In this document: one piece after another, positions 227 through 11,164 of the stretch | Position numbering within the stretch: the first letter of the stretch is position 1 | Layout of the letters: each line of letters begins with the position of its first letter | DNA from: Prevotellaceae bacterium | GTDB lineage: Bacteria > Bacteroidota > Bacteroidia > Bacteroidales > Bacteroidaceae | Direction of reading: 5' to 3' | Length of the DNA: 11,574 nt | Assembly: GCA_021204165.1 (NCBI GenBank) | Contig: JAJPZU010000112.1 | Span: 1 to 11,574 of the forward strand | Made by a program: the position numbers and the translations under genes | Notes under the pieces: generated by a model | Told to the model about the DNA's origin: nothing | Databases searched by the model: none | Seen by the model: the letters and a program-made list of their open reading frames with translations, nothing else

Positions 227-1681
227 CTATAAAGGCATGTTGCCATGCTTCTTCGGCGGATTGCTCTGATTCTTGTTACGAGTCATCTCCAGTGCCTGAA
301 TAAGACGTATGCGGGTGTCACACGGCTGTATGATTTCATCAATATAGCCAAGCTGTGCAGCCGGCATAGGATTGGCAAATTTACGTCGGTATTCCTCTAT
401 CGCCGCCGCGCGCTCTTCCGGCGAAGCCTTTCGGTAGAGAATGTTACATGCACCTTCCGCTCCCATCACGGCAATCTCCGCAGTCGGATAAGCTAAATTC
501 ACATCCGCACCGATACATTTGCTGTTCATCACAATGTATGCCCCGCCATAAGCCTTGCGCGTGATGAGTGTGAGCTTCGGTACTGTGGCCTCAGCAAAAG
601 CATACACAATCTTAGCCCCATGACGGATGATGCCGTTGTGCTCCTGATCTGTTCCCGGAAGGAAGCCCGGAACATCCTCCACCGCCACGAGCGGAATATT
701 AAAGCAGTCGCAGAAACGGATAAAGCGGGCAGCCTTGTCGCTTGCGTCAATATCGAGCGCACCGGCAAGGAAGTTTGGCTGATTTGCCACAAAACCCACT
801 GTGCGGCCGGCAAGACGTCCGAATCCTACTACAATGTTCTTGGCAAACTCGGTCATCACCTCGAAGAAATACTGCTGGTCGCATACCGGTTCTATGATAT
901 TGCGTATGTCATACGGCACATTAGGGTCTTCCGGAACCACATTGTCCAGTTCATGGCACACGCGGGTTATCTCATCTGTCACCGGATAGACAGGGGCATC
1001 TTCCATATTATTGGAAGGGATGAATCCAATCAGTTCGCGGATGGTCATCAGAGTCTCTTCCTCATCGCGGCAGACGAAATGGCTCACACCGCTCACACTG
1101 CTATGCGTCATGGCACCTCCGAGTGTCTCCTTGTCAACCGCTTCATTCGTCACGGCACGAACCACGTCCGGACCGGTGACAAACATCTGGCTCTGTCCCT
1201 TCACCATGAGAATGAAATCTGTCAGTGCAGGAGAATAGCACGACCCTCCGGCGCAAGGCCCGAGTATGGCAGAAATCTGCGGAATCACTCCGGATGCCAT
1301 CACGTTTTGCCGGAAGATGTGTGCAAAACCGGTCAGACTTTCCACTCCTTCCTGTATGCGTACACCTCCGGAATCGTTCAGACCGATAATCGGTGCTCCG
1401 TTTTTAAGGGCAAGTTCCTGCACTTTCACAATCTTCTGCGCGTTTGCCGCACTGAGAGAACCTCCCAATACCGCAAAATCAAAAGCATAGACGAAGACAA
1501 TGCGTCCGTCAATCTTGCCGTATCCGGAAATCACACCGTCGCCCTCCACACGCTTCTTGTCCATGCCGAAGTCGTTGCAACGATGCACCACATGCTTGTC
1601 CATTTCCACAAATGTTCCTTTGTCAAGAAGCAAATCTATGCGCTCACGTGCTGTGAGTCTCTGTATCTTATTGTCATTCAT
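227..1681 (-). CDS. Acyl-CoA carboxylase carboxyltransferase subunit (propionyl-CoA carboxylase beta / methylmalonyl-CoA decarboxylase alpha family)
   Basis: 484-aa ORF with family-typical strings LTARERIDLLLD, GDGVISGYGKIDGR, LNDSGGVRIQEG, GPCAGGSCYSPALTDF and MFVTGPDVV, plus a second carboxyltransferase half (PLVAVEDVPGFLPG). Its start overlaps the BCCP stop by 8 nt. Confidence 0.95.
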   Translation of the reverse strand: MNDNKIQRLTARERIDLLLDKGTFVEMDKHVVHRCNDFGMDKKRVEGDGVISGYGKIDGRIVFVYAFDFAVLGGSLSAANAQKIVKVQELALKNGAPIIGLNDSGGVRIQEGVESLTGFAHIFRQNVMASGVIPQISAILGPCAGGSCYSPALTDFILMVKGQSQMFVTGPDVVRAVTNEAVDKETLGGAMTHSSVSGVSHFVCRDEEETLMTIRELIGFIPSNNMEDAPVYPVTDEITRVCHELDNVVPEDPNVPYDIRNIIEPVCDQQYFFEVMTEFAKNIVVGFGRLAGRTVGFVANQPNFLAGALDIDASDKAARFIRFCDCFNIPLVAVEDVPGFLPGTDQEHNGIIRHGAKIVYAFAEATVPKLTLITRKAYGGAYIVMNSKCIGADVNLAYPTAEIAVMGAEGACNILYRKASPEERAAAIEEYRRKFANPMPAAQLGYIDEIIQPCDTRIRLIQALEMTRNKNQSNPPKKHGNMPL

Positions 1682-2192
1682 TGTTTTCGTTCAGTTTTAA
1701 TGTTATCAATGTCTGTCCGACCTTCACACTGTCGCCTTCTGCCACAAGCACAGAAAGCACCTCGCAATCAGCCGCGACCTTATAGTTCGACTGCATCTTC
1801 ATAGCCTCCATAGTCAGTACCGTGTCTCCGGCCTTCAGCTTGTCGCCCTGCTTGCAATACGCTTTTACTATCTTGCACGGCATCGGCGCCGTCACCTGAT
1901 CGCTCTGCACGGCATCCGTCTTTTTCCGCATACGCATGTATTTTGCCTGCGAGTCCAACATGTCAATCTGGTAAGTCGAATAGTTGACATTCACGCGGTA
2001 ATGCTTTCCTGCATCGCTCTTCACCAGCTCTGCCTTGTACGAGTTTCCATTGTGAATAATCGAACATGTTCCGTTTTGCAACATGGCCACATCCACATCA
2101 TAAACTTGTCCGTCTATATCAATCTTCACGTTGTTTCCGTCTTTGCTCAACAGCGTGACATCTACAATCTTGTTTCCAACCTGAATATCCAT
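1674..2192 (-). CDS. Biotin carboxyl carrier protein (biotin/lipoyl attachment domain protein)
   Basis: 172-aa ORF. The C-terminal biotinyl domain carries the biotinylation signature EAMKM (GDTVLTMEAMKMQSNYKV). It sits between the biotin carboxylase and carboxyltransferase genes. Confidence 0.9.
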   Translation of the reverse strand: MDIQVGNKIVDVTLLSKDGNNVKIDIDGQVYDVDVAMLQNGTCSIIHNGNSYKAELVKSDAGKHYRVNVNYSTYQIDMLDSQAKYMRMRKKTDAVQSDQVTAPMPCKIVKAYCKQGDKLKAGDTVLTMEAMKMQSNYKVAADCEVLSVLVAEGDSVKVGQTLITLKLNENNE

Positions 2193-2308
2193 TATAATCG
2201 TTTTTTAGTTTAAGTTCTGCCTGCACATCGTTCATGCGGCTTCAAAATTCCACGAAACCGGACACCATGCGGGCGGCAGGCAGATGGTTGTGCAATCTTA
2301 TCGTACCA

Positions 2309-3835
2309 TTATACTCTCAACACACCCTTCTGCAATCCGAATGTTCTCCAGCGATTGATGGCGGACTGTCCCTGTTTGCATTCAGCCGCCCCACCGGTAT
2401 TTTCCTCCAGATTCATAAGGTAGTCTATGTAGGCGGCAATCACCGCCATCTCTTCGCTCTCGTTCTTGAATCCCGGACGCGGACGCAGACGCTCCGCATT
2501 GCGCTCTATAAAATAGGTGTTGTAGTTTCCTTCACGGAAATCAGGCACATCAATGATGCGGCGCAAGTAGCGTATGTTCGTAGTCAGACCGACAATCTTA
2601 TATTCATACAGCACTCTCCTCATGCGCTCAATGGCATACTGTCTCTCCGTAGCCCAAACGATAAGCTTTCCAATCATCGGATCGTAATGTACGGGAATCT
2701 CATAGCCCTCATATACATAGCTGTCGATTCGGATACCAATGCCGTGAGGCTCTGTGAGCTGAACAATCGTTCCCGGCGAAGGCATGAAGTTATGCTCCGT
2801 ATCCTCCGCACAGATGCGGCACTCTATGGCATGTCCTCTTTGGCGGATATCCTCCTGACGGTAGCCCAGCGGTTGTCCGTCAGCAATAAGAATCTGCTGT
2901 TTCACAAGATCGACGCCGACAACTTCTTCCGTGATAGGATGCTCCACCTGAAGCCGGGTGTTCATTTCAAGGAAATAGAAATGATGGTGCTTATCCACAA
3001 GAAACTCAATGGTGCCGGCACCGATGTAGCCCACCGCTTTTGCCGCAGCCACCGCCTTCTCGCCCATTTCGCGGCGAAGAGTGTCATCAATAAACGGCGA
3101 CGGACTTTCTTCTACTATTTTCTGGTGACGACGCTGCACAGAACATTCGCGGTCGTAAAGATGGATGACATTGCCATGCTTGTCGCCAAGTATCTGAAAC
3201 TCTATGTGGTGAGGCTCCTCGACAAACTTTTCGATATAGACTGTATCATCGCCAAACGAAGCCATCGCCTCGTTCTTTGCCGCATTGTACATCTCTATCA
3301 CATCTTCTTCGCGTTCAATAAGTCTCATGCCTTTTCCGCCGCCACCCATAGAAGCCTTCAGCATCACGGGGAAGCCAATCTTTCGGCACACCTCCAAGGC
3401 TTCCTCGCCACTGCTCAATTGCTCCTGAGTTCCGGGCACAACGGGCACTCCCGCCTTTATCATCTGTATGCGGGCGGAAATCTTGTCGCCCATCAATTCC
3501 ATGGTTTCCGGCTTTGGACCGATGAAGATGATGCCTTCAGCTTCACAACGACGCGCAAACTCGGAATTTTCGGAAAGGAAACCGTATCCCGGGTGAATGG
3601 CATCCACTTTGTGCTTCTTTGCCGCCTCGATAATGTGGTCGATATTCAGGTAGCTGTCTGCCGACGACGCACCGCCGATACACTCTGCTTCGTTTGCAAA
3701 AACGACATGGCGCGACAGACGGTCGGCAGTGCTATAGACAGCCACAGAACGTATGCCCATTTCATAACAAGCACGCATCACCCGAATCGCAATCTCACCG
3801 CGATTGGCAACCAATACTTTTCTTATCATAAACAT
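2309..3835 (-). CDS. accC: Biotin carboxylase (ATP-grasp) subunit of acyl-CoA carboxylase
   Basis: 508-aa ORF with KVLVANRGEIAIRVMRA at the N-terminus, the glycine-rich ATP-grasp loop LKASMGGGGKGMR, and EMNTRLQVEHPITE. M1 or M3 could be the true start. Confidence 0.95.
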   Translation of the reverse strand: MFMIRKVLVANRGEIAIRVMRACYEMGIRSVAVYSTADRLSRHVVFANEAECIGGASSADSYLNIDHIIEAAKKHKVDAIHPGYGFLSENSEFARRCEAEGIIFIGPKPETMELMGDKISARIQMIKAGVPVVPGTQEQLSSGEEALEVCRKIGFPVMLKASMGGGGKGMRLIEREEDVIEMYNAAKNEAMASFGDDTVYIEKFVEEPHHIEFQILGDKHGNVIHLYDRECSVQRRHQKIVEESPSPFIDDTLRREMGEKAVAAAKAVGYIGAGTIEFLVDKHHHFYFLEMNTRLQVEHPITEEVVGVDLVKQQILIADGQPLGYRQEDIRQRGHAIECRICAEDTEHNFMPSPGTIVQLTEPHGIGIRIDSYVYEGYEIPVHYDPMIGKLIVWATERQYAIERMRRVLYEYKIVGLTTNIRYLRRIIDVPDFREGNYNTYFIERNAERLRPRPGFKNESEEMAVIAAYIDYLMNLEENTGGAAECKQGQSAINRWRTFGLQKGVLRV

Positions 3836-4352
3836 CTATATTTGGTTATACACTTTCTTCCATCTCAAAACAAAATATAATACGATATCAGAAAGCACAC
3901 TCCGAGAACCGCATGACAAAGCGGACAACTCACGAAAGAATACATATCCCAAGAATACATGAATACACAAAAAACACCGATATTCCATCCCGGAATCTCA
4001 GCAAAACAGTATTCTCAGTATTTTTCCGGCAGCTCTTATTCCCGAGAGCGGCATCTGAACATCGGCATCGGCAGGTCTTCTGACTTCTCCATTGGCAGCA
4101 CGGCCTTCCCAACCACAATTATTTACAGCCTCACGGCAATAACAAAGGTCAGTGGCACAACATGATGATGTGTTGCCATAAAAAACAGGAGTTACAGCTA
4201 CGGGTATAGTTACAGACTCACACTGTATTCCCTCTTAGTCTGTCCGTCTTTCCTGAGTGCTTCTTCCTGAAGTCCGCCATTCCCGAAATCAGATTAGGCA
4301 AATTCCAGTCTCAACAAGCCTCAAATGAAGAGGACAAGAACCAAATGCGCGG

Positions 4353-4578: not shown

Positions 4579-5955
4579 TCAGTCTTCTACTTCTTCCGCA
4601 TCCACAGCAGGCTCTTCTTTTTTCTTCGCCAGATACTCCGGCAAATTAAGCCCCGCCATATCGAAAAGTTCGTTAAGCGGCGGAACAGACTTCATCAGTC
4701 CGGACACGAAACCGGCTGTAGAGCCTTTTCCGTCTGCACCACCGGCACCATTGTCCCAAACAGTCACATGGTCAATGTTGATACCCTTGACAGCCTCAAC
4801 CTGAGTCTTGACAAGCTCAGGAAGCTTTTCGAGCAGCAACAGCATGTATGCCTTGTTGGCATCTCCTCCGGCAGCCTGAACCATCTTGTCATAACCGGCA
4901 GCCTGCTTCGTCAGCACTTCATACAAACCTTTTGCTTCTGCCTCCATCTTGGCATAAATGGCATCTGCTTCACCCTTTGCATTGACACGCACGCGCTCTG
5001 CTTCCGCCTCCGCTTCGATGATAAGTCGTCTCTTCTCAATCTCCTGCGGAACGAGTACGTTGGCTGTTTCCGTAGAGCGTTCACGTTCTGCACGCGCTTC
5101 CTCAGCCTCGCGTTCTGCCGCGTATGCTTCCTGCAATGCCTTTGCCTGCTGTACTTTTTCTGAGGCTGTGGCTTTACGCTGTGCCTCCGCTTCCTTCTCA
5201 CGGCGATAAGCCTCGGATGCAGCAATGGCAACCTTCGCTTCGTTCTCACCCTTTACGGCTTCCGCATTGGCTTCGGCTGTACGTATGCGGGTTTCTCTCA
5301 CCGCTTCCGCCTTACCGATTTCACCGACTTTATCTTGCTCTGCCACTCTCACTTTTGCCTCATTTATCGCTTTGGCAGCAGCTTCACGTCCGAGAGCCTC
5401 TATATATCCGCTCTCATCTTTTATATCGGTCACGTTCACATTTATCAGACGAAGACCAATCTTTTTCAGTTCCACTTCTACATTGGCAGAAATGCTCTCA
5501 AGAAACTTGTCACGGTCGTTGTTCAGTTCCTCAATACTCATCGTGGCAATTACCAGACGCAACTGTCCGAAAAGAATATCACGCGCCAGTTCCTGTATCT
5601 GTGCAGCACTAAGTCCGAGCAAACGTTCCGCAGCTGCATTCATGCAATCGTGGTCTGTAGATATACCCACAGTGAAGCGGCTTGGCACATCCACACGGAT
5701 GTTCTGTTTGCTGAGCGCATTTGTCAGATTCGCATCAATACTGATTGGTGTAAGGCTAAGATAAGCATAGTCTTCGATTATAGGCCATACGAAAGCACCG
5801 CCGCCATGCACGCAACGTGCCGACGTTTTGCTGCTTTTACTCCCATAAATCACCAAAATTTTGTCCGAAGGACACCGTCTGTAACGATTCACAATGGAAA
5901 CGAACAGCGCAATAGCCACTACAGCGGCAATTACAATAAGATACATAGATTCCAT
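4579..5955 (-). CDS. Flotillin-like SPFH/band-7 family membrane protein (YqiK-like)
   Basis: 458-aa ORF with an N-terminal TM helix (YLIVIAAVVAIALFVSIV), an SPFH-like core, and a long Ala/Glu/Arg-rich coiled-coil (AEREAEEARAERER, IIEAEAEAERVRVNAKGEADA) typical of bacterial flotillins. It is paired with an upstream NfeD-like gene. Confidence 0.9.
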   Translation of the reverse strand: MESMYLIVIAAVVAIALFVSIVNRYRRCPSDKILVIYGSKSSKTSARCVHGGGAFVWPIIEDYAYLSLTPISIDANLTNALSKQNIRVDVPSRFTVGISTDHDCMNAAAERLLGLSAAQIQELARDILFGQLRLVIATMSIEELNNDRDKFLESISANVEVELKKIGLRLINVNVTDIKDESGYIEALGREAAAKAINEAKVRVAEQDKVGEIGKAEAVRETRIRTAEANAEAVKGENEAKVAIAASEAYRREKEAEAQRKATASEKVQQAKALQEAYAAEREAEEARAERERSTETANVLVPQEIEKRRLIIEAEAEAERVRVNAKGEADAIYAKMEAEAKGLYEVLTKQAAGYDKMVQAAGGDANKAYMLLLLEKLPELVKTQVEAVKGINIDHVTVWDNGAGGADGKGSTAGFVSGLMKSVPPLNELFDMAGLNLPEYLAKKKEEPAVDAEEVED

Positions 5956-6039: not shown

Positions 6040-6128
6040 TTCATCTCTCTTGGTCAAAAATTCTCATCCCTTTGGGTCAAAATTTTCATTCCTTTAGTCA
6101 AAAAAATCTCATCCCTTTGGGTCAAAGA
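6040..6128. repeat. Four tandem 21-24-bp direct repeats (TTCTCATCCCTTTGGGTCAAAA-like) in the NfeD-like/flotillin spacer
   Basis: Copies lie at 6040-6060, 6061-6082, 6083-6106 and 6107-6128. Copies 2 and 4 share the exact 20-mer tctcatccctttgggtcaaa (6062-6081 and 6107-6126). Copy 4 overlaps the stop codon of the NfeD-like gene (6122-6124). Confidence 0.85.
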
Positions 6129-6700
6129 TTCTCTACCACCAGCATTTCTCCGCCGACAACATCAGTAATCCGCACCTTGCGCCCTGTGGTTATCGCCTCA
6201 CCCTCTGTAACCGCATCCAGTTCATGCACGGAACCGTTCACACTTATCTGCACTTTTCCTCTGCCGCTCTTCTTCTCCGGAATGCGCAGATAGACATCTG
6301 CCACACGTCCCTTGCAATATTCAATGCGGAAGGCGCCGTTTGCCTCCAGCTTCTTGGTCTGCTTGTAGATAAAGAAGAACATCCACACAAAAAACAAGCC
6401 TACGGCTGCTGCCACGAGTGCCAGCAACACAGCATTACCCATCAGCGAATGCAGACAGACACCTGCCCAGCCGAAGCCCACAAAGAAATTGACAAGGCTC
6501 CTTATAGAGAACAACGACAGTCCTCCTCCCAAATCCATTGTGTCTCCGGCATCAAAATCGACATCTATGTCGCTTGAATCCATTCCGAACAACGTAAGCA
6601 GAAGCTGTATTACAAACACAGCTGACCCGACAAGTGCACAAACCCAGAACACTTGCTGCATAGTTTCAAGTCCACTGAACCAAATTGAAAAACTCTCCAT
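6122..6700 (-). CDS. NfeD/YqiJ-like membrane protein (OB-fold C-terminal tail), partner of the flotillin gene
   Basis: 192-aa ORF with several hydrophobic helices (VFWVCALVGSAVFVIQLLLTLF, LVNFFVGFGWAGVCL, AVLLALVAAAVGLFFVWMFFFIY). The beta-rich C-terminus (GRGKVQISVNGSVHELDAVTEGEAITTGRKVRITDVVGGEMLVV) resembles the NfeD OB domain. The gene order NfeD-then-SPFH is canonical. Confidence 0.8.
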   Translation of the reverse strand: MESFSIWFSGLETMQQVFWVCALVGSAVFVIQLLLTLFGMDSSDIDVDFDAGDTMDLGGGLSLFSIRSLVNFFVGFGWAGVCLHSLMGNAVLLALVAAAVGLFFVWMFFFIYKQTKKLEANGAFRIEYCKGRVADVYLRIPEKKSGRGKVQISVNGSVHELDAVTEGEAITTGRKVRITDVVGGEMLVVENL

Positions 6701-6899
6701 ATTCTAATTAGTTTTACGGTTATATAAATCATATTCTGAAATGATATGTCCACCATCTATTTTACAAAGAGGGAACATCCTTAAAAAAAATAACATTACC
6801 AGACTGCATTTTTCATTAAACACTCTCCTTCTCACTGCATTTTCATAATTCATAAAAGACTCCGATTAATTATTTTAATGATAAATGCCAATCTTATAA

Positions 6900-7580
6900 T
6901 TACCATACATATTGCGATGGATATTTTACTTGCATGAAAGTGAAGCCATGCCCCATTACGCTATGGTGAGAAGTCGTCTGTGCTGTCATATTTGATACAA
7001 TACTGCCAAACACCTGCATATTTGCTCTTGCGTCACCGCGTGAAGCAAGAATGGGTGCATCAGGGACATCGTAATCGCGCCATGCAAATAAGCAGACCTT
7101 TTGGGGATATGTCAAGAGATTTACAGCTGTTGTAGATTCTTGAATCAAAACTTCTATCGATTTAAGCATTTGCTGTCTGGCTTTTGCCCGTTTCCCTTCC
7201 GGGTATTTTCCCGTATTAGGCTCAACATATTTTTCCTCATAACAACACAAGTCACAGAATACAACTTTTTCATGTACCATTCCTGTCTCTGTCATTAATA
7301 AATCACATCGGTCTTTAATATTGGCAGTAGTGCCTGCAAATTGTTCGATATACTTTTCAAAACGAACCACAGCAATTTCCTTGCCATTATTATTCACCTT
7401 CAGAACTTCTTTATTGCATTCATTACGGTAAGCCCTTTCAGGCAATTGCTGACATCGTATGCAACTCTTGGAGTCGGTTTCTGAGAAAGGTTCGCGTATT
7501 CTGTAGAGAGGCACTTCTACTTCTTGTGGATTTATGCCATAATGGAGCGGGAATGCCTTTTTAAGAAAAGATTCTATCAT
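6900..7580 (-). CDS. Hypothetical 226-aa Cys-rich protein, putative effector partner of the upstream ATPase; no family assigned
   Basis: Uninterrupted 226-aa ORF whose ATG overlaps the ATPase stop (ATGA at 7577-7580). It contains CIRC (CxxC) and CDLCC cysteine clusters. Possible catalytic-type strings are LLMTETG, YEEK and WRDYDVPD. I recognise no family signature. Confidence 0.7.
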   Translation of the reverse strand: MIESFLKKAFPLHYGINPQEVEVPLYRIREPFSETDSKSCIRCQQLPERAYRNECNKEVLKVNNNGKEIAVVRFEKYIEQFAGTTANIKDRCDLLMTETGMVHEKVVFCDLCCYEEKYVEPNTGKYPEGKRAKARQQMLKSIEVLIQESTTAVNLLTYPQKVCLFAWRDYDVPDAPILASRGDARANMQVFGSIVSNMTAQTTSHHSVMGHGFTFMQVKYPSQYVW

Positions 7581-8737
7581 ACGTCAAGATTTACAAATTC
7601 ATTATAAATGTGACTCATCAACTCTGAGAGGTCGTAAGTATCTACAATCCACCGTCCGCGTTCATTTTGGACAAGCAAATCTTGTATCTCTCCTTCATAT
7701 ATTCGATAAACAGCCGTGTTAGTCCTGCTCAATTGGGCACGTACTGCATTTGTTTGGTTTAGTAAAACATTCAAGTAGTTAAGAATATACGGACTATGGG
7801 TCGCAAGCATCATATTAATTTCTCGATTTTCATCCGCATGTGTTGCCGACAGCACAATTTCTTCTATGAGTTTGCACTGTGCATCAGGGAACAGACTTAA
7901 CTCAGGTTCTTCAATATGGATATATACTTGTTTCTTCAAATCGCTGGGTTCTGCGACAGCCCGAAACTTGTTCAATCTTTCCATATCATACAGATAGTTC
8001 AGGACAGAGCGCTTGAATGCGTCCTTAAATGAAAAGCCATTTGCGCTGGCATAGTTCTTTACAATCAAAGCGACCGATGCTGACGTTTGAATGCCGGATG
8101 AAGCTTCTCGTAAGTCGATTGGCTCATGACGGCTGTCATTTGGAATGACGGTGTAGCGTGTAGGCTTACCTTTGGGGTGGGTTATCTGAAGCTTCATGCC
8201 TATATAGTCCAACGGTATCTCTTTGTCGTTTGCCGATGCTCTGACAAAATCATTGTTTGTTTCATGAAAATAAAATCCCAAGGTTGCACCTGTGTTTTGG
8301 GATGCCTTTTGCGCCCATGTCGGAATGATGTTTCGGTTTTCAGAGATATAGGACACTTTGTTGAACACCAAATGGTCAGAAGATATAATGGGAAGTCTGC
8401 CTAATTTCTTGTTTTCCATCAAGATGGTGTATTCCGTTTCATCATCCATGACTACACTATACCTAATTACACTTGACGAGTCAAGCATTTTATACATTCC
8501 CGTTTCTTTCATCATCGAATCGAAGCGCATCCTGAAAGGAGAGCTTGTTATTTTTGAATGCTTCAAATAAGAACGGATGTTTGCCATTTTGTACAGATAG
8601 CGCATCATGCTTATCAGCTTCATCAGTGTGCTTTTACCACTTGCGGATTCACCAATCAACACAGTGAATGGCAGAAGGCCAAGGTTCTCAATGTGCTTTA
8701 GCGGACCAATATTTTTAATTGTTATAAATTCCTTCAT
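7577..8737 (-). CDS. Stand-alone ABC/SMC-like ATPase (AAA_15/AAA_21-type), defence-associated architecture
   Basis: Walker A is LIGESASGKSTL, the Walker-B-like strand is VYIHIEEPELSLFP, and the H-loop-like motif is LATHSPYILNYL. The ORF track extends to 8815, but MKEFITIKNIGPL (ATG at 8735-8737) matches the usual N-terminus of this ATPase class, so the 26-aa extension is probably not translated. Confidence 0.88.
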   Translation of the reverse strand: MKEFITIKNIGPLKHIENLGLLPFTVLIGESASGKSTLMKLISMMRYLYKMANIRSYLKHSKITSSPFRMRFDSMMKETGMYKMLDSSSVIRYSVVMDDETEYTILMENKKLGRLPIISSDHLVFNKVSYISENRNIIPTWAQKASQNTGATLGFYFHETNNDFVRASANDKEIPLDYIGMKLQITHPKGKPTRYTVIPNDSRHEPIDLREASSGIQTSASVALIVKNYASANGFSFKDAFKRSVLNYLYDMERLNKFRAVAEPSDLKKQVYIHIEEPELSLFPDAQCKLIEEIVLSATHADENREINMMLATHSPYILNYLNVLLNQTNAVRAQLSRTNTAVYRIYEGEIQDLLVQNERGRWIVDTYDLSELMSHIYNEFVNLDV

Positions 8738-8916
8738 AATAAAGTTTTGTTTTTCAAACAATCTGATAAAGTATGATTTACCCAATAAAGATACTAATTT
8801 GTACTTCAACAGCAAAAAAAATCCTGTATTGTGACGCTAAAAACGTGAATTTATTACAGAAATGGCACTTTGTCATGTCAAATCAGAAGGTGAAGTGTCA
8901 AAACAGGAGATACAAT

Positions 8917-8924
8917 CCAAACTT
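8917..8924 (-). promoter_or_regulatory. Candidate -7 promoter element (TAAGTTTG on the minus strand) upstream of the ATPase cassette
   Basis: Matches TAnnTTTG on the minus strand. It lies in the AT-rich spacer between the ParB-like stop (8957) and the ATPase start, about 180 nt upstream of the ATG at 8737. Motif match only. Confidence 0.25.
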
Positions 8925-8956
8925 ATTGTTGCATGAACATCTGGGGCCAGAGCCGC

Positions 8957-9478
8957 CTAATCCTCCAGCCAGTCCTCCGACAAACTGAAGTCCTTGTCCG
9001 CAAACAAGTCCGCCAGCCCGGAAATCTGCTTCAGCCTCAACAGCTCATCCTTGTCCATGCCGATATTGCGCATAATCCACGCATCCGACATGCCCGCAGA
9101 CGTAAGCTCCGACACGATGTGGCTCATCAGCTCTATCGTGTGCGTACCCCTCGCCCTGTTATGACGTATGGTCGAAGCCATTCTGCACGAAATATCCTTG
9201 TCTATCACCGACACGGGAAGCATCCCCTTCTCCCTGTCATAAATTCGTTTCGATGTCTTCATCACCAGATAGCGGTGGAATCCATCTACAATCTCATACT
9301 TGTCCTCGTCCTTCAAGTAATAGCACACGCAAGGCATGGTGTACCCGTCCTCCCATATCGACAGTTCCAACAGCTTCATCTCCGGAGGAGCCACCATGTT
9401 GGGGTTATAATTGTTCGCCACCACTTTCTCGATAGGCACTGCTATCACATTATATACCGGACTCTTAAAATTTTCCAT
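8957..9478 (-). CDS. ParB/sulfiredoxin-fold domain protein (IbrB-like / DndB-like)
   Basis: 173-aa ORF with ANNYNPN and EIVDGFHRYLV (a ParB-type DGxHR box). Its start overlaps the end of the PAPS-reductase-family gene by 14 nt. Confidence 0.85.
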   Translation of the reverse strand: MENFKSPVYNVIAVPIEKVVANNYNPNMVAPPEMKLLELSIWEDGYTMPCVCYYLKDEDKYEIVDGFHRYLVMKTSKRIYDREKGMLPVSVIDKDISCRMASTIRHNRARGTHTIELMSHIVSELTSAGMSDAWIMRNIGMDKDELLRLKQISGLADLFADKDFSLSEDWLED

Positions 9479-10763
9479 ATTCCAATGCTTTATATTTTCT
9501 CATCACACTTTCTCGTCTGCTCTTCTCATTCTTGGTCAGGGTAAAGCCCATGTACTTACACACATGGTCGTTTCTCAGTATGCAGATGCAGACACGCTTG
9601 AATGTCGGAATCTCCCGAAACTCCGGAATGTCTATGTCGTCAACGTACTCCATCATGACCGGTCTTTTGTTAGTGCGGTATGCCGTGGTCGTCCCAACCG
9701 TAAACTTCACCCCTGCCGCACGCAATTTTTCAATGGTCTCATCGCTCAGACATCCGCCTTTCGTCCTCCAGAATCTCATGCTCACACCTATCTTGTCCAG
9801 ATAATTGCGGCACACCTTCTCCGGCAACGTGTCCAGCAGAAAGTACATGTACTTTTTCCAAGAAAATCCGTGAGGACATTTTATCGACTTCCATCCCATA
9901 GCCGTCGTATTCCCGTAGATGCCGGAAAAATTGACACCATTGACACGGCTGACCATCCGCCCCCACATGTCGGGGTCTATCGCCCGATAGACACTCAGCG
10001 TAGGTATGGCATGAGAAATGAACGGACTTGCCACCCGCTGCCGCCCAATCGGAATGCCCGCACGCGAATAAAGGTCATAAAGCGGATTATAAGTCCATCC
10101 GAATTTTCCGTTTGCCGTCCAGATGTCAGATGTTTTCCAGTCATAAAGCGGATAAGCGTTATACACATGTGCAGCAAGCTTATGTGTCCATTTGTAATGC
10201 GAAAGCCGCCGGTAGTTCTTGGCATTGTGTATGGCCGTCCACCGGTTAAAACTCTCCTGCGTCCTTATGCCTACAAGACAACATATACGTTCACATTTCT
10301 TCCGGTTGCGCAGCCAAGGGGCGAAAAGATACTGGAAGTCATAGTCCCACAAGGCATCAGTGAAGAAATTGAAATCGGCTGCCGTATAAGCCCCCTCAGG
10401 CATTTCCCTCACCCATATATCCTTCTCCGATTCTCCCCAAGGTCTCCAATACGACTGGTGCATGGATGTACAGGTCATGACTTTGAAGGGCACGCAACAA
10501 TGGTACACCTCCAGAATGTCGCGATTCTCCGACAGGGTACGGCGCACATACTCCGTGGTCTGCCGGTACTGCACCTCGTAGTCCATGTGGAACACACCCA
10601 GCTTACGTCCCGGAGCATACCTCCGTATATAGTCTATGCACAGATTCAACAACACTCCGCTGTCCTTGCCACCCGAAAACGAGACATACACATAATCGAA
10701 ATAATCGAATATGATCTTCAGCCTCCTTTGCACTGCTTCATAAACATCAAGTTGCCTAATCAT
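9465..10763 (-). CDS. Phosphoadenosine-phosphosulfate (PAPS) reductase-family PP-loop protein with extended C-terminal domain (IbrA-like / DndC-like)
   Basis: 432-aa ORF with the PP-loop ATP-pyrophosphatase motif VSFSGGKDSGVLL near the N-terminus. The long Trp/Tyr-rich C-terminal extension resembles IbrA-type proteins. It is paired with a ParB-like gene. Confidence 0.88.
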   Translation of the reverse strand: MIRQLDVYEAVQRRLKIIFDYFDYVYVSFSGGKDSGVLLNLCIDYIRRYAPGRKLGVFHMDYEVQYRQTTEYVRRTLSENRDILEVYHCCVPFKVMTCTSMHQSYWRPWGESEKDIWVREMPEGAYTAADFNFFTDALWDYDFQYLFAPWLRNRKKCERICCLVGIRTQESFNRWTAIHNAKNYRRLSHYKWTHKLAAHVYNAYPLYDWKTSDIWTANGKFGWTYNPLYDLYSRAGIPIGRQRVASPFISHAIPTLSVYRAIDPDMWGRMVSRVNGVNFSGIYGNTTAMGWKSIKCPHGFSWKKYMYFLLDTLPEKVCRNYLDKIGVSMRFWRTKGGCLSDETIEKLRAAGVKFTVGTTTAYRTNKRPVMMEYVDDIDIPEFREIPTFKRVCICILRNDHVCKYMGFTLTKNEKSRRESVMRKYKALEYGKF

Positions 10764-11164
10764 TCCTTACGTCCTCCGGCATATACCATCTTGTCATAAT
10801 TCTTCCATTCCCTATGTGTCCTGAAGCCGTTGCGTGCAAAGTCAGCCACATGACGCTTGTGTACGACTGCGGTCAGCACAGTCCTGCTCACCGACTCCGC
10901 CACCACCCTGTCGAGCAGAGCATCAATGAGCAAAGAATCGTCGCCCTTGATATAATAATTGTCAATACAGGCTTCACGCTCTTTCTCCTTTACCGGAATG
11001 AATCCGATTACCTCCTTTTTCTCTATGGCCACATACCATTTGTGATGACGGGAGGTCTTGAAGGGATAATTGTTGTTGAGCCTCAACACTGCCGCATTCA
11101 TCACCAGCGGTGCCACCAGCTCATAAAGGCGGGAAGATGTGCCTTCTAAAATCTCAATATTCAT
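10760..11164 (-). CDS. Small GNAT-like (acetyltransferase-fold) protein, function unknown
   Basis: 134-aa ORF whose stop overlaps the next start (ATGA at 10760-10763). The C-terminal VADFARNGFR resembles the GNAT motif-B region, but the usual R/QxxGxG/A acetyl-CoA loop is not evident. The fold call is therefore tentative. Confidence 0.55.
   Translation of the reverse strand: MNIEILEGTSSRLYELVAPLVMNAAVLRLNNNYPFKTSRHHKWYVAIEKKEVIGFIPVKEKEREACIDNYYIKGDDSLLIDALLDRVVAESVSRTVLTAVVHKRHVADFARNGFRTHREWKNYDKMVYAGGRKE

Follow-up and report, generated by a model that had tools for sequence, protein, structure and literature searches.

The stretch of DNA analyzed here (the window) comprises 11,574 nt of a contig from a Prevotellaceae bacterium, and all positions given below are window positions in forward-strand numbering. 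Its convincing genes all lie on the minus strand, and the features described are read on that strand unless stated otherwise. We focused on two adjacent genes: gene A (7577-8737), which encodes a stand-alone ABC ATPase of 386 aa, and gene B (6900-7580), which encodes a stand-alone protein of 226 aa, a putative nuclease effector of the PD-(D/E)xK fold. The pair is flanked by an IbrB-like gene on one side and by an NfeD-like gene on the other. An earlier note, made from the sequence alone, had singled out these genes as an AT-rich cassette and a candidate defense system, and its description of their overlap is accurate: the TGA stop codon of A overlaps the ATG start codon of B in an ATGA at 7577-7580, which can be read directly from the sequence and suggests that the translation of A and B is coupled. 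The open reading frame (ORF) of A, as listed, opens at a TTG (8815); homologs and gene callers use the ATG at 8737, which gives the 386 aa mentioned above.

The two genes differ from their neighbors in base composition. A has 40.6% GC and B 40.4%, whereas the remaining eight genes of the window each have 47.0-51.5%. At third codon positions (GC3), A reaches 0.44 and B 0.35, and the eight others range from 0.47 to 0.71. Hence, the contrast in GC content announced in the note holds in its direction but is smaller than the by-eye estimate of 47-65% for the neighbors had suggested. The AT-rich spacers that the note had placed around the pair are there as well, with 33.8% GC upstream of A (8738-8956) and 26.6% downstream of B (6701-6899).

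This low-GC block coincides almost exactly with an insertion or deletion relative to two close relatives, which we found by scanning metagenomes with the NfeD-like protein. One, L058, is a pocket-mouse gut assembly whose flanks have around 92% nucleotide identity to the window, and the other, L059 (JAAGKN010000124.1), has around 81%. Both have the gene order orf134-IbrA-IbrB-NfeD-flotillin-carboxylase operon (orf134 being a 134-aa ORF), and both A and B are absent from them in blastn and tblastn searches. According to these searches and to alignments of the junctions, window positions 6799-8958 (2.16 kb) stand in place of 172 bp in L058, and positions 6814-8950 stand in place of 155 bp in L059. 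The block contains exactly A, B, and short flanks, and its counterpart in the relatives is 155-172 bp of unrelated intergenic DNA. The break points given by blastn are just past the stop codon of the IbrB-like gene and around 90 bp downstream of the stop codon of B. Since L058 and L059 keep the neighbors without A and B between them, the pair is a clean insertion of around 2.15 kb. In a third relative, L101, the cassette occupies this very site. Its A and B are 95% and 89.8% identical to those of the window, and the identities are 95-100% for IbrB, NfeD, flotillin, and biotin carboxylase and 90.8% for an incomplete IbrA. This makes B the fastest-changing protein of the locus.

The junctions of the insertion showed no target-site duplication, terminal inverted repeats, tRNA, or integrase. 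At the junction beside the NfeD-like gene, there is a 10-nt direct repeat, ACTGCATTTT on the plus strand, at 6803-6812 and 6834-6843. A gene caller placed a 49-aa ORF (6704-6853, minus strand; 4676-4825 in L043) across this junction, probably a spurious one. The possibility that the pair came from a prophage or a plasmid was considered and rejected, as we found no relatives of B in the IMG/VR viral contigs, the INPHARED/GenBank phages, or the PLSDB plasmids. Exact-match look-ups of the window proteins returned only short contigs from one study, with no added context.

To place the pair in a broader frame, we used 36 genome loci obtained by scanning a genome collection with the alignment of the B family. 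They span three phyla: most are metagenome-assembled genomes of Bacteroidales (Prevotella/Segatella, Muribaculaceae, Alistipes, and others), and the rest are bins of Oscillospiraceae, Clostridiales, and Anaerovoracaceae, plus one alphaproteobacterial bin, 'Azospirillum sp. CAG:239'. In every one of the 36, the gene directly preceding B is a homolog of A. The intergenic distance between them is -4 nt in 23 of the 34 loci that could be scored, within a full range of -8 to +16 nt, and the identities of A and B to the window proteins correlate across loci (Spearman 0.82, p 1e-8). None of the other window genes accompanies the pair in these loci. These results support the idea, already put forward in the note, that A and B are a co-inherited two-gene unit. 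The overlap and the low GC content are beyond what chance would give, because the 4-nt overlap recurs in so many loci and the low-GC block matches the insertion/deletion. The empty sites of L058 and L059, together with contexts that vary across Bacteroidales, Firmicutes, and the alphaproteobacterial bin, support the acquisition of the pair by horizontal transfer, again in line with the note. In three loci (L019, L022, and L025, in bins of Vescimonas, Anaerovoracaceae, and 'Azospirillum CAG:239'), the copies of A or B are truncated or split: B is matched only from residue 74 or 100, and A is split into ORFs of 289 aa and 99 aa. This may result from decay after transfer across phyla or from assembly errors.

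The contexts of the pair are otherwise unrelated across the relatives. One has a DDE transposase as neighbor and contigs that end just upstream of A. The B protein of the P0010 cassette (L037-L042) has records on 64 contigs. Each of the six places shown stops within about 500 bp upstream of A, and B is followed by a 74-aa ORF and then, around 640 bp downstream, by a DDE_Tnp_1 transposase. The contig ends and the transposase suggest a repeat or a strain-variable boundary at that edge. Another context places the pair between dnaK and the gene of a HATPase_c_4-domain protein. In L048 and L049 (the P0021 context), the gene of a HATPase_c_4/HTH protein follows B, and an AddAB-like pair (UvrD-helicase and PDDEXK_1 proteins) is found nearby. 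Elsewhere, A and B lie beside a transposase and recF, beside a nitroreductase gene, or near DUF2442/DUF4160 genes.

Among the 108 nearest ORFs (two per side) of the 36 loci, the only recurrent families are ResIII (6), N6_N4_Mtase (4), DEAD (3), and SNF2 (2), the others being heterogeneous housekeeping families. In four loci (L001, L002, L003, and L026), a DNA methylase of around 1,015 aa and a ResIII-type enzyme of around 1,080 aa directly flank the pair, which thus separates mod from res in a type III restriction-modification (RM) system; a helicase gene is located upstream in at least three of the four. PADLOC identifies these components in L001 as MTase_III (5.5e-213), REase_III (6.8e-208), and a DrmD-like SNF2 helicase (7.7e-204). 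We found no adjacent restriction system in L101, in the metagenome contexts examined, or in the window itself. One might thus regard the pair as a non-autonomous accessory or back-up of a type III/DrmD restriction system, comparable to PrrC in EcoprrI, in which case the window copy would be an orphan with little function. The exact position of the pair in these four loci, one of them confirmed by PADLOC, favors this explanation, as does the fact that the PDC candidates of PADLOC, to which we return below, are defined through such embedding. However, both genes are intact and have conserved motifs even without an adjacent restriction system, and A and B co-vary with each other and with no third gene. 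We consider that there is little chance that the pair is such an accessory.

The type III RM-like operon of L002, which includes the helicase, has a second pair just upstream of the methylase (positions 1975-3769 of that locus), made of an AAA_15 ATPase of 402 aa (unrelated, with 25% identity to A) and a 200-aa protein. This operon thus hosts two different ATPase-plus-small-protein pairs. The 200-aa protein was excluded as a relative of B (hhalign probability of 0.1%).

The sequence of A has the complete set of motifs of an ABC ATPase. We found the Walker A motif GESASGKST (8627-8653, from G29), the Walker B motif IHIEE(PE) (7907-7921, from I273), and the H-loop His314 (7796-7798), all three seen in the note, and the ABC signature SSGIQ (8087-8101, from S213), which it had missed. 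These motifs and the D-loop, also present, are invariant among 30 homologs. The Pfam families of the protein are AAA_21 and AAA_15. With all motifs in one polypeptide that has the ABC fold, A is a member of the ABC ATPase superfamily (AAA_15/AAA_21, 'OLD-ABC' type). As the note had stated, A has no fused effector domain, and it also has no coiled-coil insertion. Its structure model is nearest to PtuA, the ATPase of Septu and of retrons, while AriA comes below PtuA, SMC, and Rad50 in the structural ranking. The best PADLOC model is PDC-M29A (E-value of 1.8e-26, 91 bits, with residues 5-339 aligned to positions 4-337 of the 410-position profile), which leads the next one by 12 orders of magnitude. 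The lower models, mostly with partial matches, are AriA, NsnB, PDC-M56A, ATPase-Toprim, HEC-01A/02A, and PtuA.

A small, mobile, and overlapping two-gene cassette with a patchy distribution could also be a selfish addiction module, similar to toxin-antitoxin systems, that persists because cells that lose it die. B would then be a nuclease toxic to the cell and A the ATP-dependent antidote, and neither would have a role dedicated to phage defense. The Pfam name of AAA_21 refers to the toxin AbiEii of a type IV toxin-antitoxin system, and some copies of the pair lie beside toxin-antitoxin-like genes (DUF2442/DUF4160) and transposases. Yet, addiction and defense by abortive infection can coexist, the nearest relatives of A by model and by fold are defense ATPases, and a location between type III mod and res genes is typical of defense genes. 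Moreover, the three truncated or split copies fit strict addiction poorly, unless they are assembly errors. We regard a purely selfish module as unlikely.

The identity of B is less straightforward. The protein has no match among the sequence models of Pfam, NCBIfam, PHROG, and PADLOC, and it is annotated as 'hypothetical protein' wherever it is named (NCBI, JGI). A match to Abhydrolase_8 was dismissed as sub-threshold (E-value of 0.02), and a DnaA fragment retrieved by a profile search of PDB sequences was a chance match (E-value of 0.38). The B family has 98 clusters at 90% identity and 341 clusters at 50% identity, the latter from a profile search of 1.84 billion representatives. Nearly all members have 200-235 aa (210-235 aa in the clade of the window) and are unfused. 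The AlphaFold model of B is confident and has a weak fold resemblance to PD-(D/E)xK nucleases, with McrC as the best match. This likeness is at the level of the fold only, because the comparison of the profile of the B family with E. coli McrC by hhalign gave a probability of 0.1%. Hence, the view of the note that B is unassignable, and not obviously an HNH or a canonical DUF4435 protein, holds for sequence models, given that neither Pfam nor PADLOC gives such a match, but the structure model offers a weak assignment to a nuclease-like fold.

We assessed the conservation of the residues of B among 82 members of the family, down to 20% identity with the window protein. D36 (7473-7475), D93 (adjacent to C92, the two codons at 7302-7307), and K130 (7191-7193) are invariant. 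Position 110 (D110 in the window, 7251-7253) is acidic throughout (D in 44, E in 38), and position 75 (E75, 7356-7358) is acidic in 80 of the 82. Q137 (7170-7172) and R168 (7077-7079) are conserved in 81 members. Four cysteines, C40, C55, C92, and C113 (7242-7244), are conserved in 78-80 members, and C43 in 68. The three invariant residues and the acidic position 110 point to catalysis by B. In the predicted structure, D93 is at the start of strand 94-98 and D/E110 is within strand 105-113, which would put them in the canonical places of the two acidic residues of PD-(D/E)xK enzymes. The second position after D/E110 is T, S, Y, or C, never Lys, and the invariant K130, which starts the next helix, could stand in for the usual lysine of these enzymes. 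The four conserved cysteines may form a structural Zn or Fe-S site. Our interpretation of these features is that B is a putative nuclease of the PD-(D/E)xK type, whose lysine has been relocated and whose cysteines ligate a structural metal.

Alternatively, B may not be a nuclease at all but a non-catalytic adaptor or DNA binder, or some other enzyme, e.g., one with a Cys-ligated metal site, and A may be a DNA-handling ATPase similar to SMC or Rad50, with a role in repair or in the maintenance of chromosomes or plasmids. The pattern of conservation just described argues instead for catalysis, and A lacks the coiled-coil insertion. Housekeeping is also ill suited to a strain-variable, low-GC insertion that is absent in close relatives. 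This alternative thus seems to us very improbable.

The best PADLOC model of A links the pair to a catalogued candidate system. The PDC entries of PADLOC (Payne et al., bioRxiv 10.1101/2024.01.29.577857) comprise 145 candidates, all untested, that were discovered through their embedding inside BREX, DISARM, or type I RM systems. PDC-M29, one of these 'guilt-by-embedding' candidates of 2024, is the cassette FAM_00005>>FAM_02872, where FAM_00005 is an ABC ATPase family common to HEC-01, and it had 110 instances in a search of RefSeq v209 (bioRxiv 10.1101/2024.01.29.577857). A full-text search of a literature library for its name gave no paper, and we found no experimental report on it. Like our pair, PDC-M29 is a two-gene A>>B cassette with the ABC ATPase first. 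The partner ATPases of five distant loci match PDC-M29A as A does, and it is their top model (1.9e-33 to 5.3e-60). The second gene tells a different story: PDC-M29B matches neither the B of the window (at E≤0.1) nor those of the five distant loci (at E≤0.01). It does match 16 of the 82 members of the B superfamily (best E-value of 1.1e-8), mainly over the catalytic core, where residues 85-175 or so of the proteins align with approximately positions 70-140 of the 164-position profile. When an alignment of five of these matching members was compared with the clade of the window, the two matched along their full length, and hhalign gave a probability of 99.9% over 213 columns (E-value of 8e-37). 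Judged by these sequence comparisons, the B of the window appears to be a remote homolog of PDC-M29B, below membership at the level of the model.

The two also differ in size and in context. The PDC-M29B model has only 164 positions, for 210-235 aa in the clade of the window, and the definition of PDC-M29 is based on copies located within BREX, DISARM, or type I RM, whereas most members of this clade stand alone or occur in type III RM. None of the A/B loci showed embedding in BREX or in type I RM. The rules of PADLOC would probably miss the locus of the window. Since A matches PDC-M29A and B is remotely homologous to its partner, we interpret the pair as a divergent sister branch of PDC-M29 that is missed by current models. 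The note had suggested a candidate novel defense system, perhaps a new subtype. This holds to the extent that the variant escapes current models and that B has no direct match to a described effector family, but less so given the relation of both genes to a catalogued candidate.

Comparison with other systems separates the pair from each of them. In Septu and in the retron-Septu systems (Eco7/Ec78, Ec83), PtuB is an HNH nuclease, whereas B has no match to HNH or PtuB in Pfam or PADLOC, and its model weakly resembles PD-(D/E)xK proteins. The hidden Markov models of PtuA match only the C-terminal Walker B region of A (E-values of about 1e-7 to 1e-8). No retron reverse transcriptase or noncoding RNA was found in the window, where the RNA search gave only a cobalamin riboswitch located elsewhere. 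The AriB of PARIS is a DUF4435/Toprim nuclease, and B has no match to DUF4435, Toprim, or AriB in Pfam or PADLOC; a single one of the 82 B family members matched the AriA and AriAB models, along with other ATPase models. The fold scores with McrC, the nuclease subunit of McrBC, are weak, the sizes differ (226 aa for B, 348 aa for McrC), and the partner of McrC, McrB, is an AAA+ GTPase while that of B is an ABC ATPase. HEC-02, for which phage defense was shown experimentally, combines an ABC ATPase with a NERD nuclease, a PD-(D/E)xK protein (bioRxiv 10.1101/2024.01.29.577857). It resembles our pair in that an ABC ATPase goes with a separate nuclease of the PD-(D/E)xK superfamily, which is only a prediction in the case of B, and the HEC-02A model has a partial match to A (1.3e-10). 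However, B has no NERD or HEC-02B match, and the effector family, the arrangement of the active site, and the conserved cysteines are different.

The last of these systems is Menshen (NsnA/B/C), whose NsnB model gives a full-length alignment with A (8e-13). In NsnB, the Walker B is EN and the signature GxG (PMC12065111), whereas A has EE and SSG, and NsnC, an inPIN plus BECR RNase, is unlike B. As NsnA is a ParB-domain sensor, the ParB-like gene just upstream of A in the window might have completed a Menshen-like unit of three genes (IbrB, A, and B). We rejected this possibility and take the adjacency as a coincidence, because IbrB stays with IbrA at the empty sites of L058 and L059 and is never beside A/B in the 36 loci.

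We favor, with a probability of about 0.6, the interpretation of A and B as an autonomous and horizontally mobile anti-phage (or anti-mobile-DNA) module of the class that associates an ABC ATPase with a nuclease effector. By analogy with Septu, PARIS, and HEC-02, A would dimerize or oligomerize, bind B, and keep it inactive. A cue of infection, perhaps a protein of the phage, an aberrant DNA end, or a change in ATP, would alter the nucleotide- or DNA-bound state of A and thereby release or activate B. The latter would act as a metal-dependent nuclease of the PD-(D/E)xK fold, with E/D75, D93, D/E110, and K130 in place of the usual lysine forming its putative active site, and would, once freed, cut phage or host DNA. 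The note had proposed to look for an enrichment near defense genes, and this signal is modest: a type III restriction system surrounds the pair in 4 of the 36 loci, the window not being one of them, and no restriction system is adjacent in the remaining 32. If defensive, the pair is probably another ATPase-plus-nuclease immune system rather than a new kind, because it is a divergent relative of the candidate PDC-M29. The association of a sensor ATPase with a nuclease is a familiar design, and the A/B pair would leave the understanding of this class unchanged.

The spacers around the cassette offer some candidate signals. The upstream one (8738-8956), which is inside the inserted block, presumably holds the cassette's own promoter. 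The only locus to which it aligns is L101, where the cassette occupies the corresponding site. This spacer includes a candidate motif similar to the -7 element of Bacteroidetes, TAAGTTTG at 8918-8925, although the count of this motif in the window is not above chance. A second -7-like candidate is the T-rich TTTTTTTTGC, around 80 nt upstream of the ATG of A, which aligns where other loci have TAnnTTTGCA. In the downstream spacer (6701-6899), the alignment of the junctions assigns the half nearest B (about 6813-6899) to the insertion, and the remainder, upstream of the NfeD-like gene, is native. No terminator-like hairpin was found in this spacer, and scans of the spacers for sigma-70 promoters and intrinsic terminators gave counts no higher than in shuffled sequence.

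The rest of the window is made of genes that lie outside the cassette. Downstream of it are the NfeD-like gene (6122-6700), a flotillin/SPFH gene (4579-5955), and an acyl-CoA carboxylase operon (227-3835) encoding biotin carboxylase, biotin carboxyl carrier protein (BCCP), and carboxyltransferase. A cobalamin riboswitch (4053-4296, minus strand; Rfam RF00174, 71.6 bits, E-value of 2e-16, full-length model) is found around 220 nt upstream of this operon (3835..227, minus strand). Control of an acyl-CoA carboxylase/decarboxylase operon by B12 is an unusual target for this riboswitch and may provide a link to propionate metabolism. On the other side of the cassette is an overlapping operon of three genes (8957-11164), encoding the 134-aa ORF, with a weak RimI/GNAT-like match, an IbrA-like protein, and an IbrB-like protein. 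The IbrA-like protein is a phosphoadenosine phosphosulfate (PAPS) reductase/DUF3440 protein that matches phrog_2302 (1.4e-98) and, weakly, BrxP and DndC, and the IbrB-like protein (173 aa, ParB-like) matches phrog_2159 (1.3e-77). These families are strongly phage-like, yet the operon is kept in the chromosome beside NfeD and flotillin in L058, L059, and L101. It may be a DNA-modification module.

One could go further and propose that B founds an undescribed family of stand-alone nucleases, in which a four-cysteine Zn or Fe-S center ties an N-terminal helical element to the catalytic strands and the lysine of a PD-(D/E)xK-like core is relocated to the next helix, and that with its dedicated PtuA-like ATPase it makes an anti-phage system of distinct function, which would be widespread among uncultured gut Bacteroidales, passed to Firmicutes, and missed altogether by PADLOC, Pfam, and NCBIfam. 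We put forward this stronger version tentatively and think that it is rather doubtful. If the pair is indeed a defense module, it would represent a new branch of ABC-ATPase-plus-nuclease immunity that is common in uncultured gut Bacteroidales and undetected by current models, and it would provide an experimental footing for PDC-M29, so far a computational candidate only. The presence/absence polymorphism at a single site, with the cassette in the window and L101 and without it in L058 and L059, would allow near-isogenic comparisons, and the unusual active site and conserved cysteines of B would make it a reasonable target for structural work.

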